Assembly (NCBI GenBank): GCA_008632985.1
Contig: QPGO01000108.1
Location: 52,476 to 116,475, forward strand
Direction: 5' to 3'
Source: Psammoneis japonica
Taxonomy: Eukaryota
Length of the DNA stretch: 64,000 bases
The notes beneath the pieces were generated by a model. It was not told where the DNA came from and did no database searches. It saw only the letters and a list, made by a program, of their open reading frames with translations. Both the position numbers and the translations under genes were made by a program. Position 1 is the stretch's first letter. Each line of letters starts with the position of its first letter. Of the stretch, positions 2,690 through 64,000 are shown in pieces.

Positions 2690-5470
2690 CCAGAATTCCA
2701 ACATGAGCCTTCGGTGGGGCACTTTTTGGCATTTAAAACATGATGACTTTGGGCTCGTGAAAATCAACATCACAGTGAATAAATCGTGCACCAACGAAAA
2801 ATCGATCAACACTGACAAAAATGCCCATGCTTTCCAGCCCAATGCCATCCTTTGTGCACTCCACCAGCCCACATTGTTTCACCCCAAACTCTCTCCCAAG
2901 ATCTTCCTGGCTGTGTACACCCAACAAATTCTCCTTGAGGACAGCTTTTGTCCAGCAAGAAATGATGCTCTCATCAACCCACCCCTCTGAAGCCTGCTTC
3001 TCTCTTGTGGCTCACACTCTGCCCCTTTCACATGTGTGCACCAGTGCTCACAATGCCGCAATGAGAGTCTTCAGATCTTGATCGCCTGTTGGCCACCCAC
3101 CCAGTCCTCTGCAAATGCTGCAAAAATTCAGATCCCAGACAAAAAACTGAACCCAAAATCTCCAAATGTCTGGCTCCTTTTGCTGCTCTTGTTTCTCAGC
3201 CAATGTCATGGGAAAGCTGCCAGGCACAAGGTGTCTTCTGAGAATGAGCAGATCTGTTGCAGCTTGCTGCTCATGTGCTGTCACCAACAACTCAAAAAAG
3301 CAAGTTTTGCAAGCTCAACAAATTTGCCCCCCCTTTCAATCTCTGAAGCTCTTGCCACTGCTGCTGCTGCTGCTGCTGCTGCTTTTTGCACTCCAGAAGC
3401 AGCTGAGGCTGTCCAGCACTTGTTTGGCCAGTGCTGGAGTCAGATTTCATTAACAACACATTGAACAATGACTCTTTTTTGGTTGTGTGCAACCCAGTTT
3501 CGAAGCTCTGTCCACAAGAAGCTGGAAATTCTGCTCCCTGGTGCAGCCTTTGCGCTCATGACTCGCAACTCTGTCAGCCTTTGTTGAAGCAGGTTCTGCC
3601 CCCACCACCAGTGCAAAATGGGTGTGGGGTGGCAAATGAGTCCGATGACCTTGCCAGTCTTTGTTGCAAGCAACATTTGCTTTCAAATCAAACCACACAG
3701 CCCATCTCATGTTCCAGCTGCTTTTGAAACCTTCCACCTCAAACACAATGAGAGCACAGCACACACATCATGTGCACAGTCGAAATTTCCCCAGACACAA
3801 TTTTTGCTCACACTTGCGGCACCTTGACTCATCAAGTTGTCAGGCTGCTCAAAAGTGCACACATCAGCAACATGAAGCTGCTGTTGAAGAGCCATTGCCA
3901 GCTGGGGATGAGAGCCACATTGCTGGCTGTTTTGGGTGCCTCCAGCTCTGGCACAAAAACAAGTCCTTTCAGGGGAGGCCCTGACCACATGTCAGAGGTG
4001 CTGGAGCACAGGAAAGTCAAGAAAAGTGTGGAAATGAGGAGGATGCAAACAAACAGTGGTCAATGTGTGGTGTGCTGGTGTGGAGAACAATGTGACAGTG
4101 CAAAGCTCCATCTTTTCCACAATGAAGTCATTGCACAAGGTCCCAGCCCCCCTCAGAACTCATGAGCAGAGCTCACAAGCATGTTGATGCTGAGATCACA
4201 TTGCATGCATGAGCTCTGGCCACAACCCAGATTTTACGTGGCTGACTCTTCCACCCCTGTGGCCAAACTCAAAGCTGCTCACTCAAAAAAGCTTTGACAT
4301 CACTTGACCAGGGTGTGGTGGTCAGTGACTTGCAGATTCCAGCTTGGGTGCACAAGCCACAAGCCATGTGTGTTTTGTGCCAGGGATCATTTTGAAAGAT
4401 TCTTCCTGCAGCACAGTGTGTGTTGACTCCTTGTGTCGGCAGTCACATCACGTGCCAGAAGATGCCAGCACACTGCATTGCTTGGACAAGGTGGCCAGCA
4501 TCACATGACTGACTGAAAAGTGCTGTGCAATGTGCTGCTTGGCATTGGCGCAACAAGCCAGTGCTCTGTCACTTTGTCAAGAGAGACTGTTGTGAGGACT
4601 GATGACCTGTGATGCAACCCCTGCTCCATCTTTGCATGATCTCCATCTTTGCATGATGTCTCTGGAAAGACAGATGACATTGGTTGTGTCTGGCTGTTCC
4701 ACAGAGCCTTGGAGGAGCTGGAGCATGTGCTGCCTGTTTCTCTGATGGCAGGGGCTGCTCTGTGGTTGGCCCTTGCTCAGCTGTTGTTGGGTGCTGACAA
4801 AGTGCCAAAAGACACACCATCTCCAGTCCTTTTGCTGCGTGCCCTGGAGGCCAGCTGTTTTCACACTCCATGACGTGACACCAGCACTTTGTCAAGGTCT
4901 GTCCTTGCCTCATCTCCTCTTGCACTTGCCCTCAGCTGAGCAGATGTGCCCATTGGAGCTGCTGCTTTGGAGCAAAACTTTGCAATCTCTGCTCCTTTGC
5001 TGAGGCTTCTTTCCCTGCCAAGCAAGCATGTCTCAAGGTGTTGCCACGGCAAAGAGGGAAGCTCCCATTTCAGATTGGAGGTTTGGCAACCCATGTGTCA
5101 AAAACAATGAGGACAGCTGCTCGTTTGAAAGAGGTCGTCTCTTCAGCAGGGGGCATTTTGCGCTTTCTCAAAAGTCTCAAAGATGCCCATTTAAAATCGG
5201 CAGCATTGCCATGGCCGCAGTTTTGGTTTTGGCTCTTTCATGTGGTGATCTCATTTGCTCTGCTTGCACTTTGCTGTGGCTGAGGCTGAGGCTGTGTGCT
5301 GCTGCTGCTTGACACCGGCACAAACTTGTGGCTGTTGTTGCTGCCTTTCTCTGCTGCTGGGCAATGGTCCCATTCCCTTGGAAAAAAGGTGTGCCAGCCG
5401 CCAAGCGTGTGCAGGCCCTCTGCTCTGCTGACAGCTGGCAGCTGCTGGCTCTCAGCTCTGCTGGCTGCTT
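2690..5470. repeat. CpG- and TpA-depleted degenerate block A (unidentified decayed repeat or pseudogene)
   Basis: TA is nearly absent, CG is reduced and TG/CA is in excess. Overlapping short ORFs in all frames are rich in C/H/Q/M and almost lack Y. A (CTG)n tract lies at 3358-3383. Confidence 0.8.
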
Positions 5471-14600: not shown

Positions 14601-15546
14601 AACCTTCGATGTTGCGTATGAGTCGAAAAGTGGGAATGCTCTGTTGGCATGGTTCAAAGGGCCCCAAGATTGGGTATACTGGCGATATTGGGACGGGTCT
14701 GGTTGGAGCCGGGAATATAAGTTTGAGTCTTATCTCACGAGTGGCACCAGGTATCAAATGTATCTGGAGTCGAACCCGACTTCAAACGAGGTGTTGCTGG
14801 CAGTTGCTGTAGGGACAGATTCGGACTACTGTATGGCGTGGGATGGGAGCAGGTGGCACAGTCGGTTTGACTTGGGAAATGGTAAGACTGGAAACGGAAA
14901 AGCGCTAAAACTAGCATTCGAGCAACAGAGTGGCAGAGCCATGGTTGTCTATGGAAAAAAAGGGAGCCCGAATGTATTTCACAGAATATGGAACGGGTTT
15001 TGGAGCACGGAATACACACTCAATCCTCCAAAGGGTATTTCTGAAGAAGCTGTCCAAATGACACTAAGTTCGGACGCTTCAAGCAATCGCATTGCCTTGT
15101 CTGTTACGTCACGCGGGACTAATTCTCTGTGGTTAGCCATTTGGGACGGCGACGAGGGTAGGTGGAAATCGGTAGAGAAAGTGATGTCATCCATGGACCG
15201 AAAACTGAGCTATGGCAATGCGGTTTCATTTGAAAGCTTGTCGGGTAACGCCATGGTCACATACAGCAAGGACATGAGTCGCAAAGTATATTATCGAAGA
15301 TGGTCCGTGTTCTCTAACGGGTGGTCAGGGGAGTACAGTGGGCCAACACTTGGCGACTTTCCGAACACAATGCGTCTCGCATCATCTCCCTACAGTGACA
15401 GTATTATGCTATCCGTCCAGGATGACAGTCATGGTGCAAGCTTTTGCTGGTGGGACGGCATCTCATGGCGCAATGTCTACAGAATGAGTAGCCAACCTGG
15501 TGAGGTCAAGAAATTTGACTTGACTCATATCTTTTTGTGGACATGA
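11696..15546 (+). CDS. Secreted multidomain subtilisin-like (S8) serine protease; 2 exons (11696-12827, 12899-15546)
   Basis: Signal peptide and the triad VIDSG, HGTHCLGTI, GTSMATP, plus AAAGN. A GT..AG intron at 12828-12898 joins SLSG|TSMATP in frame. Downstream are a TTDDWGEETSW..DSGGDGLCC domain, a ShK-like CPVTCGLC, a PT linker and a WDG..W repeat (propeller-like) region. Confidence 0.95.
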
Positions 15547-18249
15547 GGTGACGCGTAGGGGCGGTTTCCTTTCTGCACTAGATTCACTTGTTCGCCAATG
15601 ATTACATGTACCGGTGGTGACGTTGTGGCCGAAAGGGTGAAGGTGACTTTTCTGGAAACTCCTTCAAAGAAAGAGATGACCATTGCTACTGCTTCAATGT
15701 GATCCGGAGGCAATGACGCAATGCTGTTTATACGTCAAAAAAGGGACGGAAATTCATCGCCACAGGCCCTGAAGACCGGTGCGCAGCACAGTTCCACGAC
15801 GAAGGACTGGCCCTTTTTCTTCCCGTCCGAGAAAGATTCTGAAATCCTCAAGGCTGCGGTGACTTCGGGAACTAGATCTTGTAGCTGGCTTTCAAAGCTG
15901 CGACAAAGCGTAGGTTTCCAAGTATTAGGCCTACCTCTTTGGGTGGAAGTTCGAACAAGGCTGTCAAGGACAGCCACGAGGCGCCTCTTCATCTATCTAG
16001 CAGCAGAGCGATTGTCACTAGTAGAGAGTAGCTGGGTGCACCCTAATAACATAGTAGTGCACATAAAAGGAGCCAGGCCTGTACAAGGATGTCCTGTCAC
16101 GTCGATGCCATCTCAGTCGATTTTGCAGAAAGACTGCTCTCTCTAGAGAGAGGCCGTCTCTGTGCAGAGAGCTCGCTCAGGGGATGGAGAGTTGTCGGAA
16201 ACCATGGGCCAAGACATTAGCAGGCCCAATCAGAATGACATTGCTGGCGGGCGTGCACTTGTGCATTGTTCTTGGCAGGTGGTTGGCAACATGGTGACAG
16301 TTGTGGCAACCCAAAATGGATCTCAAATGCTGAAATGCCTCAGTTTTTCAGCTGCTCTGATTCACGCATTCAATCTCATGCCCAAAATCAGGGGGGGGGT
16401 CTGACCACAAGGTTGACTTCTCTTTTTTGTGGTGCTTCCATCTTTGCTGCTGTTGACAGTTGCATGACAGATCCAGAGAATTCTCTGTGAGCCACTCACT
16501 CAACTGGTGGTGTCATCTTTGTGTCTCTCCAAACCTTTCAGCATGAGATGTGTTGTGCATCCACAGAATGGTTGCTGTGGCACATGCAATGAATTGTTTT
16601 GTGCCAACCTTCAAGTGCAGTGTTGTCACACAAATCTGCCAGATCAGAGATCAAACATCATCCTTGTGTCAACTCTCTTTCTGTCAGAACAAAAAAAAAC
16701 AGCAAAACACTCACTTTGGTGATGAAAGAGTGGTCATGAGTTGGAGACCATGCAAAAACCACACAACTGCATTTTTGCACATGCACCAGTTGGCACATGG
16801 CTGGAGTGTGCAACAACAAAAGCAAACCGTGCCTGTCGTCATGCAAAATCTTTTGTTGGGAGCTCAACTTTCCAAAACAGAAAAATGCAAAGAAAACCAG
16901 AGATGATCTTTGCACCTGAATTAAAAACATGCTTTGCATTAGAGCTGCTTTTTGTAAAGCCCCAGTGAGAGCAGCGCTGCACAAATTTTCTCTTGAAGCT
17001 CCTCTTTCTCAACTTTCTTGCCCTCTGCTCATGTCGTGTTAGAAAACAGTCTTTGCTTGGTTGTGCTGTGTCATTCCAGAGAGCCACAAATGCCCAGTGT
17101 AGAACATGAGAGAGCACATCATGTGTTCATCAGGAAATGTCCTGTGCATGTGTGCACGTCAGACATTTTCTCTTGCACCTCATGTCTGCTTCATTTCTGT
17201 TGAAAAGCAGTGGTGTCACAGCAACATGTCATCAGGAGAGCAAATGGCGCATGGCAGGGAATCTTTGGTTTGAGCTCACTCTCACCTCTTGTGCTTGGAC
17301 TGCATGGCAGGCTGTCAACAGGTTGGTTGCTTTGTTGGTGTGTTCAAGGAAATTGATGTGCCGAGACGATTGACCAACAGAGAGAGCAGACAGACAAAAA
17401 AAAAGATTGAACAAAGACAACATTTGGTGGAGAACAGCCATTTTGGATTGTTTTTCACATTTTTGGTGTTTTTGGCATTGTTGTCCTCTTGTGATCAGTG
17501 TCACAAAATTGCTGACTCCACAACAATCTTGGCTGCAATTCAATTGCATGGTTCAGTCAAAACAGTTGCAGTTTGCTGCTGATTTGCCCCAAAGTTGAGT
17601 CATGCATTGGGGCTGAAGCAGTGCCACAAACAGCAAAAATGGGACCAAGAAGTGAACATGGGAACAAAATGTGAGAAACACATAACTGTGAATGAATGAC
17701 AGACCTGACAATGAACAAAAATTCTCAAGAAGGTCTCACAATTTGCAGCAATGGCAGATTGGTGTGCTGTTTTCATCTGGTTTGTTCATCCTCTTGAAGA
17801 AAGAGAGAACAATGAGCAAGGTTGCAGACAATGTGACAGACATGACAGAAGGAAGCATTGCTGAGAAATCATTGGTTGTGGGGCTGAATGTGGAGGAGAA
17901 GGCAGATGACTTGGAAGAAGATGCACAGGGAGATGATGTGCAGGTCAAGCCTTGGGAAAATGACCCTTCTTTCAAAACAAGAGCAAACAGCTCTGGCAAA
18001 CAGAGGCACCAAGTCACCCATGTGGGGCCACACACTTCATTTGGTGCTGGATCGCCCCAAGTTGAAAGAGGAGCACACAAGTGCTTGCACTCTCCCTCTG
18101 TCCAAGGACAAACACCTCTGAGCTGCTTCTAAAGTTGTCATGCACATTGAGGAGGATTTCCGTGAGGACAACCCAGTCAATGATTCAAGCAAGGGTCATG
18201 AATTTGCCAAACTTGAAAAGTTTCTTGTGCAGCAGCAGTTTGATTTTGC

Positions 18250-19140
18250 TGTGGTTGCCAGCAAAAAGATGAAACACTGAAAGGGTTTGAGCCATCTGCA
18301 GATGAAACAAGATTGTCATCACAAGCCCAGCGGCGTGCATGTTCTGAGCAACAAATCTCCTGGTGTTGTGCATTTGCAGACCAGCATTTTGTTTTTTGTT
18401 CAGATGATGAAATGCCAAGCTGGTGGACATCCAAGTGCAACTGTTCTTCTGTTGCAATGCAAACTCAAACAATGTGCATCAGCAGCCTCAAAAACAGCAG
18501 AGTTTTGTGGGGAGGGCATTGCCAATTGCCTCTGCTGCATGAAGCGTGCATTGACTGCAAGAAACCTGCCAGGACCCCTCTTCAACTCCCTGCCCTTTTG
18601 AGCAACTCAAGTTGGATGGACCCCCATCCCAATTTCCATCTCCTGGCTCCCTGGCTTGCTTCTTGGATGCTGCATGTGGCAATGATCTTCACAGCCACCA
18701 ATCCACTGCTGGGCATGCACATGTGCACCATGTTGGCTGGCACCGCTGTCTCATTTCATTGCAAGACTCAGACAGTGGCTGCCACAAGGAGTTTGACTGA
18801 GACCAAGTTTCATGCTGCTGGCACTGCCACAAAGCAGCTGTGCATCTTTGCTCTGTGCTCAAGGAGCTTGGTTCCCCTCAAGATGGACCTGCTCTGTTGT
18901 TTGTTGACAATGAGTCTGCCATCAAGATCATCAACAGTTGTGCCCTGGCTGGTTGCTTGTGCCACATTAACATTGAGTGGGTTGCTCTTTAAGATTGGAA
19001 AGAAGCAAGGCTTGTTGTCATGTGGAGCATGTCTCTGGCATTCTTGGTCCAAGCGATGACCTTGGCAAGGCTCTTGGATCAATGTCACATGCCTGTTGGA
19101 TGATGGCATGCTGCCATTGAGTTCATGATGGAGTCACTCT
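18250..19140 (+). mobile_element. Decayed Ty1/Copia pol C-terminus (end of RT plus RNase H)
   Basis: Broken-frame motifs FLDAACGNDLHSHQSTAGH (cf. FVDAAY.ND...RRSTTGY), LAGTAVSFHCKTQTVAATRSLTETKFHAA (cf. LAG.A..Y.SK.Q...A.SSTEAE) and SDDLGKALG (cf. .D.LTK.LG). Confidence 0.85.
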
Positions 19141-19170
19141 TGCAAAAAACAGCAAAAAGTGTCAATCAGC

Positions 19171-19382
19171 TGGTGCACAGTTTGTTGATCCAAGGTGGAT
19201 TGAAAACACAGTGATCTGTCTTGGGTTTGAGCACTCACAATGTGACAGTGATGGCAAGGTTGCCAAGCTCCTCATTTGGTGTGCAGTTTGTTGACACAAG
19301 GTGGATTGAAAACACAGCAATCTGTCTTGGGGGTTTGAGTGCTCACAATGTGACAGCAATGGCAAGGTCACCAAGCTCCTCA
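19171..19382 (+). repeat. Two-copy ~106-bp direct tandem repeat (19171-19274, 19277-19382), possibly a decayed LRR N-cap coding unit
   Basis: Direct alignment of the two copies. Translated pieces RWIENTVICL..CDSDGKVAKLL resemble W....C.W.G..C..DG.V..L caps. Confidence 0.85.
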
Positions 19383-20479
19383 GAGACACCCTCATCAATC
19401 AATGTGACTTGACCATGGAGAAAGCCATGCCCCCTGCAGCATCAGCCCATGTCTTGGAGCATCGGGGCAGTTTGATGACAATGTTGTGGAGACATGTGCG
19501 CAGAAAAGTGCACTTGGCAAGCACAATGGAGACAAGGCCAGACAGTCTGGGCTGCAGCAGGGGCATTTGCAGCCACACTCTAAAGACAAGGTTAAAGTCA
19601 ATCCATTCAAAGATGGAGTGGCAGTGATGGATGTGGCAAAAGCTGCAGCAAAGTGCCTCTGACTCAGCAAGTGCTTTGCCCCATTGGAAATGGCGCATGT
19701 GAGGAAGCTGGCGTTGTTGCCCTCAGACCCAAACTTGACATCAATGGCACAACGGGTTGCAGCAGGGCATTGGCAGTTGAGCTGGGTCCTTCAATGCAAC
19801 GAAGCATTGCGCGCTTCCACAATGGCAAAGCAAAAGGGCGCCTTTGCTCATGCTGACACTTTTTTGCAATGGAGCAATGATGGTGATGGCAAGAATTTGA
19901 GGCAGTGCTCTGAGAAACACAAGTTCTCACCAAACTGGCACAGTGTGAGATGCTGCACTGTGGTGCACCTGGGGTCTGCCAAATCAGAAGAAGACCTGCG
20001 ATGCCTTGACGAGTTGTGAGCTGTCTGCAGCTGTGCCAGAGAAAGAGGTCGGAAAAGAAAAAAATCCACCATGACATGAGCAAGAACACTTGCTTCATTC
20101 TCTTCTGCAGGAGACACGTGCTGAGAAAAGGCAACTGCACAGTTTCTTGGGCAACACCACCAACAAGCCTCTGTCCGAGCCAGGCAAAATTGTGCTGAAC
20201 AACCAACAGCTGCCAGCTCTTCTCTCCTTGATCTCTGACTGGCTGTGAGCCGAGAGGTGTGCCTCTCTGTGCTTTCCCAGGAAATGCAAGAACGCGCAGT
20301 GAGGTGTCTGAAAAAGGAGCGTGACAAGTTCAGTGGTGTTGCAGAGACACATCATCGGAGTTGAGTGCGTGGCAACACTGTAAGACGATCGAACATTTTT
20401 TGGATTTTTCTTCACTTTTTTGGCGTTTTTGGCGAATTGTCGTCTCGTGACTCGCTGACTCGTGATGCCGTCATCAATC

Positions 20480-21694
20480 ATGGCAATGGCGTCCCCGTCA
20501 TCTTTTCTTGGGCTTCCTTTCCTCCACCTTCTTTTACTGAGATCAGCCGTTTCTGCCTTTGTCCCCTTAATACAGTCCCAAAAGCTAAATTCCGTTTCGT
20601 CCAGAAGAATGAAGCAGTGGTACCATGACGACGACTTGGAACGAGATTTGCGACACGTCATGAACGATCCACTGTGCTGTGCCACTTCTAGCGATGCAAA
20701 GTATGTCCTGCTCAAAGGGAATCGTGGAATGTTTCATATCGGACATGATAGTCAGCGCTCTACTGCTGAACCGCTCTACTTCTCGTATGTCGAACTCGCG
20801 TCATGTTTTGGAAACGATGTCATTCCGACAATGTTGGAATCTAGCACCGACAGCAACGACTCTGAATTAATATGGGTCGGAAACAAGAATAAAACCAACT
20901 ACTGGGCACTTTACTTTGCACCTGATACAGAACATGAACATAAGCACGATGACATCACAGACGTGCAGGATAAACTCACCAACGCCCTCAAGGAGCGCGG
21001 GGGCGAAACAGATTCCATGCTTCAAGCAGCTCCTCTGCGCGAATTTGGGGATCGCCTGGAACACTTGGAGGATGCAGGTGTGCTGGCTACAGCGAACGGA
21101 CTGGTGGAGTTTCATAAAAGTCATGGATACTGCACAAAATGTGGGTCGCGGACAGCTTCTACAAAACTGGGATCGGCGCGGGCGTGTACAAGCTGCCAGT
21201 CAAAAGTATATCCACGAATCGATGTTGCAGCCATTATGCTCATTACATCGCCATGCAAACAATACGCCCTATTGGGACGAAAAGCATCGTGGCCAAAAGG
21301 ACGGTATTCGACCTTGGCCGGCTTTTGTGAAGTGGGAGAAACAATGGAGCATTGTTGCATACGAGAAACCAAAGAGGAGAGCGGAGTACGTGTTGATCCA
21401 GAATCGGTCCAATTCGTTTGCAGTCAACCATGGCCATTTCCAAGGAGCCTCATGGTGGGGTTTCGTGGGGTTGCCCTGGCTGACAATAAGGCCACCGATG
21501 CTCTCCCGACGATTGAAACCAATCTAGACGAGATGGAGCGCTGCGACTGGTTCCACAAAGATTTCGTTAGGTCAAGATTAGAAGGCGGATCTACAGCACT
21601 TGGATATAAGCCTACAGAGAGCGAAGCGGAGTTTCACATACCGGGAAGAGCAAGTCTAGCTCGACTCCTCATCACACAATGGGCAAATGAGTAA
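20480..21694 (+). CDS. nudC: NADH pyrophosphatase (NudC/NUDT12-13 family Nudix hydrolase), probably plastid-targeted
   Basis: Zinc ribbon YCTKCG..ACTSC, YPRID, Nudix box AGFCEVGETMEHCCIRETKEESG and SQPWPFPRSLM. Signal peptide followed by VSA|FVP. Confidence 0.93.
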   Translation: MAMASPSSFLGLPFLHLLLLRSAVSAFVPLIQSQKLNSVSSRRMKQWYHDDDLERDLRHVMNDPLCCATSSDAKYVLLKGNRGMFHIGHDSQRSTAEPLYFSYVELASCFGNDVIPTMLESSTDSNDSELIWVGNKNKTNYWALYFAPDTEHEHKHDDITDVQDKLTNALKERGGETDSMLQAAPLREFGDRLEHLEDAGVLATANGLVEFHKSHGYCTKCGSRTASTKLGSARACTSCQSKVYPRIDVAAIMLITSPCKQYALLGRKASWPKGRYSTLAGFCEVGETMEHCCIRETKEESGVRVDPESVQFVCSQPWPFPRSLMVGFRGVALADNKATDALPTIETNLDEMERCDWFHKDFVRSRLEGGSTALGYKPTESEAEFHIPGRASLARLLITQWANE

Positions 21695-23282: not shown

Positions 23283-24200
23283 GCCAGTTGCACATGGGAG
23301 TGCTCTCGCGCAGGTGGTTGTTGAAGCACATTGCGTTCACGGCTGCCATTGTCATTTCGTTTCGACAAGTCACAGAAAACTTAAAATGTCAAACACACAT
23401 GGTTGCTCAAGGCATGTGAATGTTCACACAAGTTCTGCATGCTCTGTGGGTTGTCAGATCATGCATCGAGTGAAAATTTTTCACACCCTGCTCCTGTGCC
23501 AAAACGAGTGGACAGTGCACCCCCTCCTTTGGGCCTGGCCGCAGCATGTGAAATGCATCAATGTGCAAATGCAAAAAATTGACACCCAGCACAAAAGAAC
23601 AGGTGGGCAAAGGCGACGACGATGCTGGCAGCTCAGAAGAGAGAGAGCAGGTGTGTTGCCCTGCATGATGGAGAGCTCCTGCACAAGGGAGCACAAACAA
23701 CAACAGCACTGTGCTGACATGGAAAGCCAATTTTGGGCTGTTTGTCACTCAAATGAATGTTTGGCGTGTGTTTGAAAAGCAAAATTATGGTGACCTCTTT
23801 CTCGCCAAACTTGGTGGGCGCCAGAGAGAAAGCATGGCTCTCACATGCCTGTGCAAAGTTTTCCAAACTGAGGCCAGTGACAAGGACATCAAAGAGCAAA
23901 AAAGAATGACAACAAGCAATTGAGTTGGTTGGCTGCTGCAGATGCTCCTCTGCCCACTGGCATGGTGTGATGCAGCAAGAGGCTGAAATTGAAGCGCTGG
24001 CTGCTTGTTGTCCATCCTGTTTTGAACATTGAGCAGGTCCCCAGCATGCACAGGGAGCATGAACAGAAACCTGCTGGTGCATCAGCCACTGCAGAGATAA
24101 CAGAAAATGTGAGAATCGAGCCGTTGTGCGTGCTGAGACTACTTCTGGATGGGCGGGATGGCTGGACCAGGCTGACGTCACATCAGTCGTGAGACGGGAC
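23283..24200. repeat. TpA-depleted, partly CpG-depleted degenerate block C
   Basis: Almost no TA, TG/CA excess and nearly Tyr-free overlapping ORFs. Some CG is retained. Confidence 0.7.
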
Positions 24201-24372
24201 TTGACAAATTAGGAAGTCTCATCGCTCACAAATCGCAGACCGGACGACCCAACGGTCACAGGCAGTGTCGACCCCCCTCCCCTTTTCTCACTCAAATGGT
24301 TGGTCTTTGGTTTCGGGGATCCAACGTCCAACGGTTGCGCCATTCTTGTCACTTTTTGCCACTCGAACGACA

Positions 24373-26193
24373 ATGATATCTGGGCTGTCACAGCGCCTGG
24401 TGGCCTTCCTAGCAGCTCTCTTGATCCTTGCATCATTGCAGGCTATCTTGGTAATTAGAAGTGCTGACAAAGTGTTCGACTACGACAATATCGACGTCAC
24501 ACCCAAACAATTATTTCTGCAGTTTGACGGCCTGGTTGAAGAACACAACACAACCATTGATGGGGCCTTTCTCCCTGGTCCTTTTTATCAAGATCAATTA
24601 TACCTGCTTGGAGCACGCCTCACGACTTCGTATGAGCAGGACAATGACATTGTCGAAGTGACTCTATTTGGCATGCCGGGGGATTTCTGGAGACGGAAAA
24701 AGGATCACAAGATACGATGCAACGTGAATACACTAAATGCAGTGAATGGAACCATGTTCAATCACAGCAAGAGTGAACGAGATGTTGCCCTGTATGCAAA
24801 GGTGATGCCGGAGGGAAGCATCATTCCGATGGAATTCGTACCTACACTTACCGGGGATGTAAACAACAATGGCGTTACGTTGATATGGAAAGCTGATCTC
24901 AGACCATTTATCACTCGAACGGATATTGAGCTTGCGCTTGAAAAGCAAGAATATGACAATGTCTTTCATCAAACCGAAAAAGCTGTTCGTATCGAGTTTT
25001 CCATTGAGGTCAACGACGAGGAGAGACGCAACGACGACAAATCATTGAGTCACCTGGCTACTGTCGACATTCCTCTGTCCACTGGTGTGGTGGGACACGC
25101 CGGACCCCAAGTACGCACTACGTTCTTCAACAGCACCTACAGGAGAAACAAAATACCGTCTTTTTTGGTCCCATCTTTTTCCACCAACGCCTCTCTTTGT
25201 GTTGCCATGTATGGCGAAGAGACCGCAGTTCACTTGCCTGAGTTCGTGCAACACCATCTCAACGTAGGCTTTGATCAAATTATTGTAGGTGTTCTGCGGA
25301 CGCACTTGGGGTCGGATATGATTCACCACGTACAAAATACCCTGGCGCCATTCTTGGAACACGGGTCAGTGGTATTAGCTGCTATGGGTTTGGGATCTGA
25401 TTTAGAGTGCGAAATCAACATTGAAAAGACACACTTTTACAACGGATGCTTGTATCATAGCAAGGGCGTGGCAAAGTACATGGGAAATTGGGATGTTGAT
25501 GAGCATTGGTTGCCACCTCTTTCCGAGGATGAGTGGAGGCACCATACAGACGCACTGTCCGAACGAGGTGAGACTAAACAGACAAATCGAAGTGTAAACA
25601 TGGCACCAGAGCAAGGTATCATTTGGCAACAAAGCAGTTATAGCAAGATTCCCGATATTTACACAGTCATGGAGTCGATTCAAGCTTATCAGGAGCTGCA
25701 TAGTTGTGGAGAGGAATGGTGTTATCACAGTTTCCCATCTGTCACGGTATTTCGAAGACGGATTGGAGAGGGAGCCACATTGGAAGACACCAACAGGACA
25801 TTTACCATCCAAGGTGACTTTGATCGCCGAGAAGATAAGCTCAATCTAGGTTGGGCCAAGGCTGTAGTGCGAACAAAGTTTACCAACGCAGGTGCAACTC
25901 ATATGGCTGGATCCTGCCGCTGGCCACTTCATGATCCTGATAAATACGTTAGAGCTCGGGATGTGACATGGAGCAGCAGCCCCTATCATGATTCAAGATA
26001 TCTGGAACCATGCCGCAACTTGAGAATAGAAGGCTTTGGACTCATGCATCATTTCTCATCTTTGAACCGAATCCGATCACGGGAACGGCGTTCCTATAAA
26101 CCAGACTTGCCTGTGGATGAGTACGTCCACCAGTTTGCAGAGACAGTCCAAAAACAACTCAGCGTGCTCAACAAGCAAAAGGATATAAAATAA
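24373..26193 (+). CDS. Type II membrane glycosyltransferase-like protein (GT92/DUF23-like)
   Basis: N-terminal TM anchor, SLCVAMY..LPEFVQHHLNVGFDQI, YNGCLYHSKG..YMGNWDVDE (DxD motif) and a late MHHF. Confidence 0.75.
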   Translation: MISGLSQRLVAFLAALLILASLQAILVIRSADKVFDYDNIDVTPKQLFLQFDGLVEEHNTTIDGAFLPGPFYQDQLYLLGARLTTSYEQDNDIVEVTLFGMPGDFWRRKKDHKIRCNVNTLNAVNGTMFNHSKSERDVALYAKVMPEGSIIPMEFVPTLTGDVNNNGVTLIWKADLRPFITRTDIELALEKQEYDNVFHQTEKAVRIEFSIEVNDEERRNDDKSLSHLATVDIPLSTGVVGHAGPQVRTTFFNSTYRRNKIPSFLVPSFSTNASLCVAMYGEETAVHLPEFVQHHLNVGFDQIIVGVLRTHLGSDMIHHVQNTLAPFLEHGSVVLAAMGLGSDLECEINIEKTHFYNGCLYHSKGVAKYMGNWDVDEHWLPPLSEDEWRHHTDALSERGETKQTNRSVNMAPEQGIIWQQSSYSKIPDIYTVMESIQAYQELHSCGEEWCYHSFPSVTVFRRRIGEGATLEDTNRTFTIQGDFDRREDKLNLGWAKAVVRTKFTNAGATHMAGSCRWPLHDPDKYVRARDVTWSSSPYHDSRYLEPCRNLRIEGFGLMHHFSSLNRIRSRERRSYKPDLPVDEYVHQFAETVQKQLSVLNKQKDIK

Positions 26194-26244: not shown

Positions 26245-27706
26245 TCAGCTATCCGTGTCGTCGATATCCAGGTTGACGTCTGCTGCACGCAATCCCAGTT
26301 CGGCAATGCGAGCGGCTACTCGTACATTCAATGAGTTTCCCAACAGCTTCCACTGTTGTTTCATTGTACATGATTTTGGAAACTCAAACGACGAACATGG
26401 TTCCTCCTCGGTTGCTGACCTAACCGCGTCGTCCGACCTTGGTGACCGCACCGGAAAGCCCATGAGCCTAGCGATTTCAGTGCCCGAAAAGTAGCGCAGG
26501 TGACGCTTCCAATCCAGCCCTTTTGCCCAGTCTGGATCAAACTGTCGTTCCTCAGGCGATGCCAACTCAAAGCAATGTCCAGCCTTATGCTTCTTGTCAC
26601 TCTCCTTAGTTTCTATGTCTTTGTCAGTCTCTTCCTCGATCGGTCCAGTATACAAGACGCTGCCCGTCCCGCGAACAAACTTTCCGTACGACTGCGTAAA
26701 GCAAGAACTCCTACATTGCTCTGGGGTGACAATGTCAAAACACCATGATGAATTACCTTGCATAATTTTGTCGGGTATTGCAAGTTCATGAGATGCAGAA
26801 TCGTTCGAGTCTAGAAACGTTGATATTGGTGGCAAATCCTTGCTCTCTGGAGTGGTTGGAGCAACGTCTAGGGCGGGGATGCTGGTGTGAATAGCGGGCA
26901 AGGAATTATTTTTGTCCTGGGTGGATTCGTTCTCAAGGAAAGTATTTCGAAACTCACTGCCGTCAGTTGCTAGATACTCCCTCCTCACAGCGACACAGAA
27001 ATACCGAGGACGATCATTCGGTAATCCAACCTGGGTCGGAGTCAAGTGAAAGTGTCGCACAGAATAGTCTCGTTCCGACAGAACTGTCCGCCATTTTTGA
27101 CAACTACCGGACTAACGAGACAGAAGAAAAGCGCAGTAAGTATAGCTTAGAATATGAGATAGATATAACACTTCTTGGAGTAGACCGAGCGACTCGCCTT
27201 ACCTTTTCAAATCCAACCACGTTTTCCATCAAAATGACACGTGGTAGTTTTGAAACTTTCATTGTTTTCAACAAATCACACAATCTCAAAAAGCTCCTCG
27301 ACCTTGGGTCCTCCAAGTCTTGATGGGTATTGTCATGCTGTCGTGTGTGTGGCTGGCACGGTGGACTCATGGCCCAGACCGTGGCATTCCATTCCTCAAC
27401 TTGTGCTGTGGTCAAGCGCTCGATTGAAAACGGAATAACCGATCGTTTGCGTTTCTTGCCGTGTAGTTGTTGTTGTTTGCTTGTCGTAGTAGTGCCGAAA
27501 TTGTGATGAAACACCAATCGACAAAGATCAGAATGGTCCAAGTCTGCCAAACGCTCAAGTCGTATGTTCGTCTTGTTTGGTTCTATTCGATTAAGGGCTT
27601 GTTGCAGTGCCAAGGTCCAACCGCCAATCCCCGAATAGAATTCGACATAGGTTATTACTGTTTCGTTTCTGTTATCGCTAGAATGCGATGAACATTTTGT
27701 CTCCAT
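26245..27706 (-). CDS. DNMT2: DNMT2/TRDMT1 tRNA (cytosine-C5) methyltransferase; 2 exons (27706-27203, 27111-26245)
   Basis: Motifs EFYSGIGG (I), MSPPCQPHTR (IV), ENVVGFE (VI), PNDRPRYF (VIII), CFTQSYG, LRYFSGTEIARLMGFP and KLLGNSLNV (X). GT..AG intron at 27202-27112. Confidence 0.93.
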
Positions 27707-28009
27707 GCTTAGCAAGCCTCCTGTGTGTGATTTTTACACCTCGATGCAGCACTCGCGACAACAACCAACTGCAGCGAACGGCAAAGTGTGCCATTTTCAG
27801 AGACGCAACGTGCACGCGTCGCCGCAGGTCGGAGGGAGTTTTTCAGTCACGAGTAGGTGAATTTGTGACTGGTTTCAGCCAATCAGATCACATGAAAAGT
27901 CTGTCCGTCAGCACACTCTGGCTTCCCGCATTTTTCGTTCTGCATTTTCTTCACACACCCCACACCATGGCGAATCGTGTCGCCGCTCGCACCACAATAA
28001 CAGAGAAGA

Positions 28010-36273: not shown

Positions 36274-37832
36274 ATGAAGCTTCTTTATTTTCTCTCCGTT
36301 CTTGTTGGCACTGCCACCGTTGGCCGATACGCATTGGCGTCCGCGACAGCGGTCAAGGGTTCTCAAGAGGTAAGCAGACAATTCCGTAATCGTTGTACCG
36401 CGACTTCTCGCGGAATTTCACTCACAACCATACCGATTCTACCTGCTTTCTACAGGTCAAATCGAATCAATACTCTCTTTCGGAGAGGGCCGTCGCGACT
36501 CCATTGACCAAGTTCCCGACGGCTGCTACTCCTGCTCCGTCTCGTGCTCCAACGTGGGCTCCGACTACCACCGGCAAAAAGAGTGGCGCGGCGGGAAAAA
36601 AGTCTCACGGAAAAAAGAGCAAACTCACGCGGAAGCTTGAAAAGTCGTCCAAGGAACCCTCTTCCAAGGCTCCAACCAAGTCGTCCAAGGCTGGAAAGAA
36701 GCGCCGTATCCTTGTCGCCCCTCCCTCGTCCAAGGCACCCAAGGCTCTCGGCTCGCGTGGAAAATGCCGCCGTATCTTTTCCGCAGGCGAATCAAAGGCG
36801 CCTAAATCGTCCAAGGCTCCCGGTGCTTCTACCAAATCGCCCAAGGCTCCGGCCAACAATCGCCTCCTTTCGAACGGTTCATCCAAGGCGCCCAAGTCGT
36901 CCAAGGCACCGAAATCGTCCAAGGCTCCTTCCACGACTGGAAAACGTCGTGTTCTTTCTACCACCGGCTCCTCCAAGGCTCCATCCGTGAAGTCGACCAA
37001 GGCCCCGAAATCATCGGAAACTCTGCACAATACTGGAAAGCGTCGTTTCCTCTCCACTCAAGGATCCTCCAAGGCTCCATCCACCAAGTCATCCAAAGTA
37101 CTAAAGTCGTCAAAGGCTCCGTCCAACGCCGGAAAAGGTCGTCTCCTCTCCACTCACGGTTCCTCCAAGGCTCCCTCCGAGAAATCTTCCAAGGCACCGA
37201 AAGCGTCCAAGGCTCCGTTCTACACTGGAAAACGTCGTATTATTTCCACGCAAGGTTCCTCCAAGGCTCCATCCATGAAGTCGTCCAAGGCACCGAACTC
37301 TTCCAAGGCTCCGTCCTACACTGGAAAACGTCGTGCTCTTTCTACCACCGGTACCTCCAAGGCGCCATCCATAAAGTCGTCCAAGGCACCGAAAGCGTCC
37401 AAGGCTCCTTCGTACACTGGAAAGCGTCGTTTCCTCTCCACTCACGGATCCTCCAAGGCTCCATACACCAAGTCATCCAAAGTACTAAAGTCGTCAAAGG
37501 CTCCGTCCAACGCCGGAAAAGGTCGTTTCCTCTCCAAGCACAGTTCCTCCGAGGCTCCATCCATGAAGTCGTCCAAGGCACCGAAAACGTCCAAGGCTCC
37601 GTCCTACACTGGAAAACGCCGTATTCTCTCCACGCAAGGTTCCTCCAAGGCTCCCTCCGAGAAATCTTCCAAGGCACCTACTTCCACCACCTCTTCCTCC
37701 TCGGATGACTATTACAAATCATCCAAGGCTCCCAGTGGAACCAAGTCGCCGGGACGTCCTCATCGTCATCTTCTCAATTGGAAGGATCTCATGCCCGAGC
37801 ACTACGCGTACTACAGGGCGGTACTCGTCTAA
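36274..37832 (+). CDS. Silaffin-like secreted Lys/Ser-rich repetitive precursor (~490 aa); 2 exons (36274-36369, 36456-37832)
   Basis: A signal-peptide exon (MKLLYFLSVLVGTATVG) is joined by a phase-0 GT..AG intron at 36370-36455. Tandem 32-aa (96-nt) units are rich in KSSK/KAPK (KxxK) and delimited by RRIL/RRVL/RRFL/RRAL. Confidence 0.85.
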
Positions 37833-53264: not shown

Positions 53265-54249
53265 TGTAAACGCCGAAGCTTTAACGTCGACACGACTTAC
53301 AGCCCAAAAAAATGATATCCAAGACCCAACGAAGCTTCTATTCTGCAACTCGACGCAGTGGCAGACGATTACTTTTCAATCAATAGGTCTATGAAAGCCT
53401 CTCTTCCAGTTATTTCTGAAAAACAAAATCGTCTCGGATTCTGTAGAGATAATTCTCGAAGCTGCGATGATCTTTCACGAATAAGAGAATAGTCATTATT
53501 GGCACAGCGCCATGGCGGAGGGTGTTGAGAAATGACGACGACGGGTGAGTAAAGCTCGTGGAAAGGAAAAAAGGGTACTGAATTGTGTAGAATACTACAC
53601 AGTCTGCCTCAAGCGATATGTTGGAGCGCGCGCCACACGGAACCTTTTGGCCGACGGCCGTCGCACAGACGTCGCTGTCGAAGGTTTTCGCGCGGATTTT
53701 CCGGCAATGATGTCTCACTGTGTGGCGTAATGAGTTCAGCGTGATGGAGTGTCATTGATGCCGGCAAGTGGAGCTCAAATTAATCAGGTGACAACACATG
53801 TTTTCTCTGTGTGCCGGCTCTCTGGAATCCTTGGAGGGGGGGATTGAAACTGAAGAGACTCACTCAACTCATGTGCATTTGATCACCTCTTGCTTGAAGC
53901 AAAAATGGATCAAAGCAAAGGAGTGCATTCAAATGCACCCACAAGCAATGCATGGGATCACAACTTCATTTGATGGTGCGAGTCTGTTCTTCTCCAGCGG
54001 GCCACTGCCAGCAATTGCCATTTTTGTCAAGGGCTGCCTGGACCTTTTTGGACATGCCAGCGGCAGAGTCACAGTCTCTTCCAGAAAACATGCCAGTTCT
54101 CTTGGCTCTGGCATTGCACTTGAGTCATTGACAAAAAAGAGGCAGATGTCTTCAACCTCCCCAAACTGAAAGTGCTGAGTTTTAACAGAGTGTGCTGCAC
54201 ATGCCCCCAGTTCATTGGCTTGAACATGAGTGCTGCACAGTCTGCGCAA

Positions 54250-55800
54250 GACAGTTTGGCTGGATGAAAAATGTTGTTGTGCACTTGAGGTTGGACTGTG
54301 GCAGCCACGCAGAACAGAAAAATGCAGAGCTGAAAAATGATCAGCATGAACAAACCAATTCTCAATGTTCAGAAAGGTCAACAACACCAACATGAAGTCT
54401 TGGTGGTCTGAACATGGCCATTTGTCCATGTTGAGTGCTCCTTCTGGCAGCTTGCTTTTGAAAAACACAGACAAGCCAGATTTTGATTGAAACAACATGA
54501 GCAAGAGCAAGCTCAGGGAAAACAACTGAAGCTGACCCTTTCAGCATTTCTTTGCAGGAACAACATGACAAGGCTTGTGGTGTTGAGGCAATGCTTTTCA
54601 TGACCCCTGAGCCAGATTGTTGCCAAGAGCATTTGACAGGACAACCATGATGGGAGGTCCATCCTTTCGAAGTCGCACCTCCATGCCACATGTTTGTCAA
54701 GTCCTGCCAACCAGGGCAGTTGAGGGACTGCAAAAGAGAAAAAAGTCAAGCATGAGAGGTGCAATTTCCCTGCACCTGCAAGCTTGAAATCTCAGTCCAG
54801 AACAAAAAGGCACCTTCATGAAAGGCAGCATTGCTGGCGCAAGGCACTGCAAATGTGCAAACTGCAAGGGGTCCATCTTTGGCAAGGTCTGGATCTGCAG
54901 CTTGCAGAATCCAAACAGTGCTGCAATTGCACCACCCAACAAGTGACCACTGATCACAATCTGCAACCTTGGTTGGGAAACAGACAATGACTTTGATTTT
55001 TTTCACCTCATGCAAGACTTTCCAGAAACCCGGTTGCACAAGCGGCTTGATGTCTTCCTGAACAATCTTGTCAATGGGCCTCATCTTGCTTTTCGAAGAC
55101 CAAGAAGGACTTGGGAAAAGCCCCGGTGCACCAAGGCACTGTTGACGACATCATTCTTTTCTGCATCAGTGTCAGGATTTGATTCTTGTCTCTCTGTGAC
55201 ACAAAAAGAATGAATTGGCTCTGCAAGAGTGCCCCCACTGCTTGACTTTTCCCATTTTGGAGACTCATCAGACTTGCCCTTCTGTGCACTTTGAAGTTTT
55301 GCTGGACCAACCCCACCAGGCATTCTTGAGTGATGCACTTGCCATCCCACGAAACACAATCTCAGCTTGCTTCTTTTTCTTCTTGTTCACAGCAATGCGG
55401 TGAATGCAAGGGGCCTTGGCATTGTCCTTTTTGTTGGCAAATGTGCACAAATCATGATTGTGTTTGGGTTCATGTGTGAGCTCTTGGTCGCGCTTGTCAT
55501 CACTGTTCAAAAACCTTGGTGGTGCTTGTCGTCACTGTTCAAAAAGGCAGAGACAGCCTTGATGGCTTCTTTTTCCACACTTTTGCCACCACTGTCAACT
55601 GCCATGTGCACACAACACACAATTTGAGAAGAAATGATGTGAGGATCAAAAACACAAAACTTGGTCAAGACAGCCACACTCATGGACTTGCAGGTGAGCA
55701 CCTCACTGAGCTTGTCAAGGTCCTTGGGATGTTGTTTGCTGACCTTGAGGCTCTTCAACAAATCTTCCCTCCATCACTGTGCACATCTGATCTTGTCATG
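54250..55800 (-). pseudogene. Decayed class 3 lipase (alpha/beta hydrolase)
   Basis: Ordered remnants: IAVNKKKKKQAEIVFRG (~55350), ALVHRGF (~55120), IVISGHLLGGAIAALFGF (~54940; GHSLGG with TCG->TTG) and VCTFAVP..SNAAF. Boundaries approximate. Confidence 0.75.
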
Positions 55801-56129
55801 GACTTGTGCAACAATCTGTCAAGTCCTGCACTGCCATGTGCAACACCCAAGCAAGCATTGGGAACATCCCATGCATCCAAGAATGTGCTGCATGTGACTG
55901 ACCAAGTGCTTGTGTCCATTCAACAATGAACGCAACTCCTTTGTCAGTCCGTGCCACTGACAATCTTGTCATGGTGGCACATGGTTCCTTGTTGGGACCT
56001 GCATTGACTGCTGTGGATGCAAGCATGTCTTCTGCAGGCACAGCTGTGCCTGTTGCATGTGAAGGCTGTGCCACATGTGACCAATCTGGCAGCAGTGCCC
56101 CTTGCAACACCAAATGCCATCTCCACATT

Positions 56130-56520
56130 GGTTGGCACATGTTGACAAACTTGTCATGGCATCATGTGTGTGCTATCCAGGCCTGCATTGCCCACTGCAG
56201 CCACCAGGCCACCAGCATGTCTTGTGGAGGTGCTGCTGCTGCCTCTGTTGCATCACATGGATCAAGGCACAGCCCACATTGCCAAGGCTGCTGGGAAGGC
56301 TGTGATTGGTTGTCATGTTTGGGTTCCAGACCCCATCCACTGCTGCACCAAGTTGTGCCCCAGCTCCAAGGAGGGCACTTTGGCTGCATGTCCCATGCCA
56401 CCAAGAGTGCCCTTTGGCATGATCTTGCAACCTCCCAGCAGGTCAAGATTGCCCAACATGTGCACTTCAATGATGTCATGGACAACCTCCAACATGAGAA
56501 GATCAATTCAAGCAGGATGC
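56130..56520 (+). mobile_element. Decayed Copia fragment (post-integrase SH3 region)
   Basis: IGCHVWVPDP..TKLCP..KEG (cf. FGCRVWV..P...KL....G.FLGY) and ALWHDLATSQQVKIAQHVHFNDVMDNL (cf. WYD..T..VK.ARHV.FDE). Confidence 0.7.
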
Positions 56521-57389
56521 TTCACCTGCTGGTCCCCATGATGAACGGATGCATGAAAGCTTCTTTGCTTTCTGTTTCACCTGTGGTGTCTTCTTTGAGC
56601 TCCACTGGGTCCACAGAGTCCAAGTTGGGCTTGGTTCTCATGTCCACTGCAAGCAGCTGCAATGACATCGAATGTCACTTTTCAGAGTTTTGGGCAGGCA
56701 TGTGAGGCTGCTGGCATGGGCCATGGGGTGCAGGGAGTTGGGATGTTGTGTGGAGCTTAAACAAGAATGTGCACCATGTCAAAACAACTGCAACATCAAA
56801 ACCCATTGTTGCTGCCAGTGGGGCAGGTGAGGACACCTTTCCATGGGCTCCAGAATGCTTTGAGGGAGAATTGAAACTCAAAGCTGAATGAGAGACCAAC
56901 TCTCACATGTGCTGGTTGTTGATCTTCTCTTGCTTGAAGCAAAAATGGATCAAGACAAAGGAGCACCTTCAAGTGCACCCACAAACAACACATGACATCA
57001 CAACCTTGTTTGGTGGCAAATCCACTCATCAAAGGGCATGTTGCAACAAATGTGTTGTTGAATTAAAACAAAGAGATTTCTCTCATGTGATGGAGATGAG
57101 GTGGAAGATGGGTTTGAGATTTCCCGTCACATGTGTGACTTTGTGCAGCCATCATTTGACACAGCTTTCAGTGGTGATGATTTAGACTCATCCACAAAAG
57201 GGGCACTTGTGCAGTCAACATTGTTTTGTGGCAATGGAGACAGCTTCAAATTGCACTCTCCAGTTCAGGGACTGGCAACCAAGAGCCACACCACGCATGG
57301 CACCATGAGCCCGTGCACCCACAACCCCCACAAGTGGAGTCTAAGAGGCGGCATTTCCACACCACCATGCATGGGCAGGACATTGCTGT

Positions 57390-58050
57390 GTCAGTCAATG
57401 CTGATGAACTGGGTGAGCACATTGTCCATGATGCAAATCTCCTTCATTTAAAAGGCCTCAGTCTCTTGTTGCATGTGCACAGCAGTGGGGGCAATTGGGG
57501 GGAATTGGCAAAGAGATGCAGCAGCATCTGGCACACTGTGTGCTCACAAAAATTCTTCAAGCACACTGAGTTCCTTTGTGGAGACATGGTTGGACATGAC
57601 AGAAAAGGGCTTTTGAGTTGTCTTGCCATGACATGAGGATGTCAAGAATGCACCAGGCTTGTGCCTCAGCCCTGTCGGCGCAGTGTCACAGAATGGCCAT
57701 TGACTGCAGCCAATTGTTGGCTGCTTGTTTCATGGAGTCCATTCATCCACCCAGGAATGGCGAGTGTGCAAGATGCTGTTGGCCAACCCAGCCAGCCAGA
57801 GGGCAAGTCCATCGGATGAAAATGGACTTGGCTGACAGCTTCTGGCAAACACATCTTGCTCCCAGCACTGTGTCACTTCTGGGGGTCAATTCTCCTCACC
57901 AGCTGGGTGAGCCGCCCCTCATGGCTGTCCCAACATGACCATTTGCTTGTGGGATGGTCATGTTCACCACCAGTTTTCAGCGGGGGAGCACTGAAGCCAT
58001 TGCCAACATTTGCACACCTGTGGTGCACACCCCAACACCCCTCTTGGCAT
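57390..58050 (+). mobile_element. Decayed DIRS/Ngaro-like reverse transcriptase fragment
   Basis: DMTEKGF*VVLP..PGLCLSPVGAVSQ..PIVGCLFHGV; KMDLADSFWQ..LGVNSPHQLGEPPLMAVP; LLVGWSCSPPVFS (cf. KxDxADGFY..LPMGW..SPP.F). Confidence 0.75.
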
Positions 58051-58799
58051 TTGGCATTGAGTGTCCCCAGCTGACATCTCCAGCCCTTTGCACACATCTG
58101 TTGTGGCACTTGGCCCTGCCAACCTGAGATTTGCAGCCACCAATGTCTCCACTTGATGTCTCTGAGTGGCCGTCATCCAGCTGAGCCCATTGGTGTGCAC
58201 AACTTGCCACCCGCATGCTTGCCAGTGGTGACTTTGTCCTTCACCCCAATGCCAATGTCCATCCCACTCACTGCCACCAACCCACAACCCATGTGGCTGC
58301 CTCACACATCACCACAGCCCTCCAGCTGGGCCCACCCTCCACCCTCAATTTGTGCTGGCTTGTTTTTCATTGCTGTGCATGTGGGGGCCATGCTGCTCCA
58401 GCTTGGGAATGGAAAGGGAACAAGCCACATCAGCAAAGTGTTCCCATCCCTGCAAATCCAGTGCTTTGAAACCTGCAAGACACAGATCACCACAAGAGGT
58501 CAAACAAGCAAAGCAATGCCAGTTGCTGGCCTCATGCAGACCAACAAGTTGAGACACCTCATGGCCAGTTTGAGCTTCCAGCATCCCCCCTGCATCATCA
58601 ATTTGAACACAAGTGAGTTGGCAAACAAGTGCTGCTGCTCCTCTCATTCTTCTGAAGAGCTTTGGCAGCAAGTCAAACAAACAGTTGAAAGTGCTCCAAC
58701 CCCTCCAGCAAAGCACTCCCACCCCCCTGCCAGTCCAGTGCTTTGACACCCACCAGACCCAGATCACCACAAGAGGTTGAAGGAGCAAAGCAACACCAG

Positions 58800-63900: not shown

Positions 63901-64000
63901 GTCCATCACAGGCAGAAACTGAGGGATGCAGCCATCAATCTCAATTGCTCTCACAACACACTTGTGGGTCTTGACATCAGCCAACTTGCCATGAAACACT
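60950..64000 (-). mobile_element. Decayed Ty3/Gypsy retrotransposon (gag remnant, RT, RNase H, integrase)
   Basis: In order: LPNDEL (gag), PFPIPHIQDML, GLCSSPDTFQEKM..VHLDDLL (RT), WTSVEDKAFE..AHPPDFNKTFEICANASKCQLGA (RNase H), WHH...LCHPG, TMIDPATG, CDHGTEFVAEF, RNPQ and ASPVQLVFECD (integrase). Confidence 0.92.

Follow-up and report, generated by a model that had tools for sequence, protein, structure and literature searches.

TG/CA doublet swaps between tandem copies in a TA- and CG-depleted transposase relic of the diatom Psammoneis japonica

A 64,000-nucleotide stretch of Psammoneis japonica DNA (contig QPGO01000108.1, positions 52,476–116,475; hereafter the window) contains the relic of a hAT-like DNA transposase gene, and within this relic a tandem duplicate at 19171–19382 whose two copies differ mostly by exchanges between the doublets TG and CA. 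The pattern is probably the result of two dinucleotide-specific processes, one acting at CG and one at TA, which hit each copy and each strand independently after the duplication. Taken alone, the duplicate is mostly a record of CpG decay and gives modest evidence for TA targeting; the latter is supported chiefly by the block around it and by related loci rather than by the five swaps. The duplicate contributes the timing, placing the hits after the duplication, together with one hint that a newly made TA was removed.

Tandem copies and their differences

Tandem Repeats Finder places the duplicate at 19171–19382 with a period of 106 and two copies. Copy 1 (19171–19276, forward strand) codes for a G-x-Q-F-x-D-P-x-W...V-x-C-x-G-F segment of the transposase, and in copy 2 (19277–19382, forward strand) the frame is shifted by 2 bp inserted into a run of G. 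Pairwise alignment gives 92 identical columns out of 106 over a shared length of 104 bp. Five TG/CA swaps and one TC/CA doublet separate the copies, and copy 2 has two additional G, in agreement with an earlier note made from the sequence, which had described mostly TG/CA swaps plus one other two-base difference and a 2-bp indel. All 12 mismatches fall in six doublets, leaving no isolated substitution; none of the 49 sites outside TG/CA has changed between the copies, and 21 of the 26 TG/CA doublets are the same in both. Random placement of 12 mismatches produced five or more swaps in 0 of 200,000 trials, and a control repeat in an ordinary gene (about 36876–37678) shows swaps at 0 of 5 doublets. 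Additionally, the 212 bp of the duplicate contain neither TA nor CG; ordinary window DNA carries 4.2 TA and 5.9 CG per 104 bp.

The chance that an assembly or polishing artefact made the swaps is negligible. Contigs of run X1 show no difference from the assembly over 19186–21500, and one differing letter and one gap over 15500–19213; together they reproduce the duplicate, the swapped letters and the junction at single-copy depth. Runs X1–X3 come from one sample, which may be the source of the assembly, so this agreement speaks to assembly error and not to replication; the duplicate lies outside the coverage of X2 and X3. The first X1 contig departs from the assembly at 16390 and 18546, through an extra G and a G>A change within a CG, reflecting either assembly error or an allele that has lost one more CG.

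Comparison of both copies with the copy of the relic on C182 identifies 11 doublets per unit that differ as TG, CA or CG, and read contigs add CG at two further doublets (19207 and 19252), giving at least 13 former TA or CG targets. This number is consistent with ordinary DNA, which offers 10 targets per 104 bp. Five of the 13 are swapped and eight alike, a split consistent with random strand choice in each copy (coin-toss test for 5 of 12, P 0.77); part of the eight may have changed before the duplication. The counts bear out the earlier proposal of independent hits on opposite strands of an ancestral CG or TA after duplication. Near-saturating, dinucleotide-specific mutation against little background divergence, also claimed there, is matched by the 49 unchanged non-target sites: assuming 10 intact targets per copy, erasure of TA and CG together would have run at least about 60-fold above background.

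Ancestral states of the swapped doublets

The earlier note had suggested assigning each site by comparison with an unmutated homologue, which proved feasible in part. Genome searches covered the 91-Mb assembly (G000), where no unmutated copy was found: DNA searches returned 3, 3 and 6 places and a protein search 7, all examined copies being TA-erased, and among motif searches an exact read-contig motif matched 0 places and a TG/CA-degenerate one 3, of which those examined were TA-erased. The swaps were therefore assigned through read contigs and through the residues present in 18 homologous proteins and in those metagenomic loci that could be aligned (44 of 59), with gaps excluded from the counts. 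A search for a closer protein relative gave none (one match, 38%).

Three swaps are assigned to ancestral CG. At swap 3 (CA at 19232–19233, TG at 19340), homologues carry the Arg predicted from CG in 13 of 54 cases and the Tyr predicted from TA in none. At swap 4 (TG at 19249–19250, CA at 19357), two read contigs of a sister copy show CG directly in their loose ends (place 19240), and the homologue residues are Asp, as CG predicts, in 29 of 54 and Asn, as TA predicts, in 3. At swap 5 (TG at 19261–19262, CA at 19369), Ala (CG) occurs in 33 of 54 and Thr (TA) in 2.

The two remaining swaps were weighed by rough odds that combine codon usage of the window genes, the measured strand bias and the possibility that a retained TG later passed via TA or CG; the priors are crude. 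Swap 1 (CA at 19176–19177, TG at 19282) is probably an ancestral TA, since the Ile or Val predicted from TA occurs in 25 of 59 homologues and the Ala or Thr predicted from CG in 1 of 59; an ancestral CG here is decidedly improbable. At swap 2 (TG at 19212–19213, CA at 19318), Val (TA) occurs in 38 of 56 and Ala (CG) in 5 of 56, and the strand preference weighs against an ancestral GTA. An ancestral CG at this site falls a little short of an even chance, an ancestral TA is a tentative reading, and a retained TG with a later intermediate seems somewhat unlikely. A first reading of swap 2 as TA was given up once the strand bias had been measured.

The sixth difference is TC at 19189–19190 and CA at 19295; C182 and C381 carry TC, which marks it as ancestral. 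Because none of the 49 non-target sites has changed in this pair, two adjacent changes are best explained by a TA-mediated route, the simplest being probably TC>TA>CA, in which a C>A change makes a new TA that is then erased. Collectively, the duplicate probably holds three CG swaps, one TA swap and one split between readings, plus one TA-mediated doublet. The earlier note's interpretation is supported in part. That every swap was ancestrally CG, which the note had given as the outcome that would leave ordinary 5-methylcytosine decay, is approached by the homologue residues without being what they indicate.

TA and CG loss in the window and in related copies

The duplicate lies in a block of about 3.9 kb (16220–20100) with a sharp left edge, flanked by ordinary genes (subtilase, NUDIX); on its right, CG comes back over about 20100–20400. 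Positions 16201–20100 contain 12 TA and 30 CG, corresponding to observed-to-expected ratios (o/e) of 0.04 and 0.14, and control DNA gives 0.57–0.60 for TA and 0.92–0.98 for CG. The window contains four such sharply bounded blocks lacking TA and CG (about 2900–5300, 16200–20100, 23400–24000 and 53900–64000), with ordinary genes between them. In three of the blocks the o/e of TA is 0.03–0.04, against 0.57–0.60 in gene-bearing DNA. CA/TG is enriched, at an o/e of about 1.9. TA loss is confined to repeat blocks, and duplicated host genes are also affected.

The direction of change is shown to be TA>TG/CA. At columns conserved as Tyr in the 18 homologues, 7 of 9 mapped cases across three genome copies now have Cys or His, with one Tyr kept and one Phe, whereas none of 27 codons with ancestral TG/CA (C, H, Q, W, M) shows a swap (Fisher P 4e-6 against the Tyr columns). 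Between the erased segment 23695–23970 and the intact 24861–25095, TG or CA now stands at 5 of 6 TA and 7 of 8 CG. Moreover, the loose ends of the sister-copy read contigs contain seven TA, at which C381 carries TG/CA in five cases, TA in one and another change in one (by eye), and TG/CA accounts for 32 of the 66 doublet mismatches between the relic and its C182 copy. The erased segment 23695–23970 copies a fragment of the intact gene next to it, 24205–26190 (weak GT92 match), and is hence a host-gene duplicate and not a transposon.

The TA process is separable from the CG process, and is faster. Specifically, TA is lost with CG largely kept in the C118 block (o/e 0.10 for TA, 0.77 for CG) and in three duplicated methyltransferase gene copies (0.09 and 0.71), and the C182 block lies at 0.09 and 0.45. 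The surviving TA also reveal a sequence preference. In the duplicate's block, 9 of 12 stand in YTAR and 0 of 12 in RTAY, and over three window blocks 23 of 33 stand in YTAR; the control proportion is 186 of 1184 (P 1e-5 and 2e-11, respectively). These counts imply a preference for 5'-TAY of about 5–6 times over T-A-R (5.6-fold).

C182 and C381 are haplotypes of one locus, collinear over 15.5 kb at 97.7% identity; the entries L002 and L003, taken at first as two extra copies, were rejected as such and counted once. CG differs between the haplotypes at 76 of 305 sites in the block versus 6 of 321 outside, and TA at 14 of 60 versus 11 of 251, with both products, TpG and CpA, present. These differences suggest recent activity of both processes. 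No strand coordination is visible among the 36 TA differences or the CG differences between the haplotypes.

The relic spans 17718–20335 on the forward strand and is broken by stops, frameshifts and an insertion. It is about 72% identical to the copy on C182/C381, and a more distant relative on C118 contains a frame of 524 aa, to which 18 database homologues are 30–49% identical. By language-model features, homologue P0002 is closest to hAT clusters (0.92–0.94); Pfam returned no hAT domain for five homologues or the C118 frame. A C-terminal ALNAES..E motif and an N-terminal zinc-finger-like stretch are features that we take to resemble hAT. hAT transposases have an RNase H-like core and a C-terminal dimerisation domain, and their elements carry terminal inverted repeats with an 8-bp target-site duplication. 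Self-comparison of the window gave no inverted repeat around the relic, and the element ends are not mapped. The insertion (18477–19121, forward strand) is absent from the C182/C381 copy and is a piece of a high-copy repeat with 63 matches in the genome; it presumably resembles Ty1/copia RNase H, a match that Pfam did not give. A 54-bp direct repeat (17441–17494 and 20398–20450) brackets the relic; its copy outside the block retains four CG, and the inside copy has TG/CA at all four (by eye). A sister copy of the hAT family that retains TA and CG is present in the reads and not in the assembly, as contigs that align at 17950, 19240, 19702 and 20319. In run X2, which covers only this copy and the NUDIX gene, it forms a 1382-bp contig at a depth of 174, compared with 56 for the gene; X2 may be an RNA library, and the sister copy hence expressed. 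At 18331 and 20320 the relic carries CG where relatives carry TG (a conserved Trp codon) or TA (a read contig), as seen by eye, hinting at rare hits on both strands or weak activity at CA.

Elsewhere in the window, two repeat pairs in the large erased block (53879–53976/56919–57016 and 58431–58523/58706–58800) show TG/CA swaps at 3 of 6 and 3 of 4 doublets. Neither process has left marks on the gene at 36390–37832, which has Lys/Ser-rich 96-bp repeats (KSSKAPKS-like). A C5-methyltransferase gene at 26245–27733 (reverse strand), which we take to be DNMT2-like by motif, is split over two frames and is probably unrelated to the finding. The frame at 5827–8571 matches the protein-feature atlas at under 0.9 throughout. 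For the V-ATPase d gene of the window, the named best relatives are diatoms (Attheya, Phaeodactylum, Helicotheca, Trieres, Epithemia, Mayamaea and Fragilaria).

Mechanism, alternatives and relation to known systems

In the proposed mechanism, whose order of events is inferred, a hAT-like transposase gene, at that time mostly intact, would have undergone tandem duplication of a 106-bp segment. The silenced repeat would then have been methylated and its 5-methylcytosine deaminated, turning CG into TG or CA at three of the five swaps. TA would likewise have become TG or CA through A:T>G:C changes in repeat blocks, fastest at 5'-T-A-Y; one swap and the sixth difference would probably be due to them, and possibly a second swap. 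For this second process, a TadA/ADAT2-like adenine deaminase would make inosine in DNA and be recruited to silenced chromatin as a genome defence; that the TA enzyme is a DNA adenine deaminase is a guess with about an even chance of being right. Since the motif is tight and other changes are absent, enzymatic base damage is favoured over sloppy synthesis.

Deamination of 5-methylcytosine turns CG into TG or CA, and a role for methylation in the CG arm would follow the same chemistry. According to one source, CG methylation of transposons in Phaeodactylum tricornutum depends on DNMT5 (PMC9998398). The P. japonica genome yields 27 C5-methyltransferase matches, several of them DNMT1/DNMT4-like. 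Among these genes, L038–L040 (on C301 and C297) are duplicates 92–95% alike, TA-erased with CG mostly retained, and show 25 swaps in 2632 columns; L034, L035 and L041 are intact DNMT1/DNMT4-like relatives, with a weak chromodomain beside L041.

Five matches, named by motif and Pfam, represent deaminase genes in the genome: TadA-like (L028), ADAT2-like (L032), dCMP-deaminase-like and deaminase-oxygenase types. TadA-like and ADAT2-like genes are expected of any eukaryote. L031 (C79:88500) fuses a zinc deaminase domain to a 2OG-Fe(II) dioxygenase. ADAT1 is usually encoded by one gene per genome; here two A_deamin (ADAT1/ADAR-type) genes occur, L107 (on C40) and L108/L109 (on C79), and the second stands out as a candidate. 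With the TadA-like, the ADAT2-like and several C5-methyltransferase genes, both count among the candidate enzymes. TadA's tRNA site reads UAC. TadA-derived editors are described as acting mainly at UA motifs in RNA (PMC13225742).

Several observations weigh against the account of two dinucleotide-specific processes. A TA origin is probable for just one of the five swaps, and no unmutated DNA demonstrates TA at any of them; the homologues used for the assignment are distant (30–49% identity), and among metagenomic relatives neither ATA nor GTA occurs at swap 1 (0 of 43), nor GTA among the Val codons at swap 2 (0 of 28). Swaps in an R..Y context are only marginally in excess (16 of 24, P 0.048). 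The older, window-internal pair has 8 of 29 TG/CA swapped on a background of 18% transitions (15 of 83), a high background that lets swaps arise from TG/CA via a passing TA or CG; at the low background of the duplicate this route should explain at most about one swap. TA erasure was found in 0 of 59 metagenomic hAT loci (lowest o/e 0.26), in a search that needs an intact peptide motif and is biased to intact elements. All read evidence comes from one sample, perhaps the assembly's source. In addition, the deaminases found have one or two copies each and resemble housekeeping enzymes that act on tRNA or nucleotides, and nothing links them to DNA. One of the metagenomic hAT loci, L097, has an o/e of 0.06 for CG and 0.48 for TA, corresponding to CpG decay without TA erasure in another organism.

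One rival reading holds that all five swaps are plain CpG decay, TA having been erased or absent before duplication, so that the duplicate would be silent on TA targeting and the block would not. Three of the five swaps are indeed CG, the two states are about equally likely at swap 2, and a slight chance of CG remains even for swap 1; about 6–8 CG per unit could yield five swaps by chance, and TA erasure outruns CG decay in the C118 and C182 blocks, so that a late duplicate would hold CG only. Against this, swap 1 would need the Ala or Thr seen in 1 of 59 homologues, and the TC/CA doublet would need two adjacent chance changes despite none at 49 sites elsewhere, or three steps via CG, making this rival improbable. 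A continual interconversion of TG and CA, through a CA>TA change followed by erasure or CA>CG followed by decay, would need no ancestral CG or TA at all. It draws on the 8 of 29 swapped doublets of the older pair, on a haplotype swap count of 7 versus about 3.8 expected (P 0.09), on one conserved Trp that is CGG in C118, and on the reported presence of RID-related DNMT4 enzymes in diatoms (PMC9998398). The older pair's swaps fit its 18% background, however, and swap 4 is CG in reads; moreover, the unswapped conserved C/H/Q/W/M codons (0 of 27) and the 21 of 26 doublets alike between the duplicate copies leave such interconversion highly improbable.

Two further rivals concern the enzyme only. 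The TA changes could come from an error-prone Y-family polymerase (such as Pol eta or Pol iota) at work when silenced repeats are repaired at cytosines that carry methylation or have been deaminated. In somatic hypermutation, Pol eta produces A>G changes at WA motifs, with a spectrum that includes AA>AG and transversions, and the block borders in the window are common to TA and CG loss. This spectrum is broader than the one observed, where none of the 49 non-target sites changed; relative to C182, AA/AG differences number 26, not above the 58 transversions, and TA is erased where CG is largely kept. The polymerase is accordingly an unlikely source, though not a negligible one. The damage could instead lie on T, as an oxidised or modified thymine in 5'-RTA pairing with G, or on a deaminated N6-methyladenine. 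An A>G change on one strand is indistinguishable by sequence from T>C on the other, and the deaminase–2OG-Fe(II) oxygenase fusion L031 is present; Tet_JBP gave 0 matches in the genome, a weak negative because the control was silent too. A modified base of this type is a rather doubtful alternative to an adenine deaminase.

The closest known system is the TpA hypermutation of integrated viral DNA described in Bigelowiella natans by Mettrop et al. (bioRxiv 10.64898/2026.01.13.699255). The preprint describes two viral inserts that received 231 of the 302 new mutations, almost without exception TpA>TpG/CpA, at about 1000-fold over background in some mutation-accumulation lines only; it finds TpA-poor genes enriched in transposon domains, and proposes, without showing it, an ADAT2-like deaminase (bioRxiv 10.64898/2026.01.13.699255). 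In both systems, as far as the preprint describes its own, A:T>G:C changes at TpA on one strand or the other yield TpG or CpA, run counter to the common AT bias and are restricted to foreign or mobile DNA, with the diatom also showing hits on duplicated host genes. B. natans is a rhizarian, whereas the hits in P. japonica, a stramenopile, fall on the relic of a DNA transposon and on host-gene duplicates; erasure here is near saturation (o/e 0.03–0.10), compared with 0.45 for the giant-virus insert there, and the rate was measured there and is only inferred here. The 5'-TAY bias and the joint loss of CG also set the diatom apart, the main text of the preprint mentioning neither CpG, trinucleotides nor diatoms. 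The literature matches listed, which leave most subscription journals outside, include no description of TA erasure in a diatom, one of the searches giving the Bigelowiella preprint alone.

The CG arm resembles the CpG decay of diatom repeats, in which CG becomes TG or CA; known here from sequence, it accounts for three of the five swaps. The removal of TA and the change of Tyr to Cys or His are beyond the reach of CpG decay. In repeat-induced point mutation (RIP) of ascomycetes, C:G>T:A changes at CpA create TpA, triggered by homology before meiosis. RIP has been linked to RID/DNMT4 (as cited in PMC9998398). Like RIP, the diatom process yields repeat-confined, dinucleotide-specific and near-saturating transitions with sharp borders, and hits duplicated host genes. 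However, RIP makes TA from CA, and the diatom process destroys TA and makes CA or TG. A homology trigger as in RIP would fit the erased methyltransferase duplicates, yet the pair member at 24861 is intact and the 36876–37678 repeat untouched. The diatom process is RIP-like in logic and fails RIP's defining chemistry.

What is new here is the diatom host, the saturation, the targeting of DNA transposons and gene duplicates, the TAY motif and the joint CG decay. Divergence times estimated from TG/CA-rich relics in genomes of this type come out false. So far a single preprint, on one rhizarian alga, describes a repeat-targeted nuclear A>G mutator, and the footprint described here extends it to a second major lineage. 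Its definable motif makes the enzyme searchable, and a natural DNA adenine deaminase, if true, would matter for base editing. Tentatively, diatoms may possess an adenine-deaminating genome defence that acts at 5'-TAY in silenced repeats, among them DNA transposons and surplus gene copies, near saturation and faster than CpG decay, removing new TAs as they arise, and that is shared with Rhizaria as an old adenine base editor of the whole SAR group (stramenopiles, alveolates and Rhizaria).
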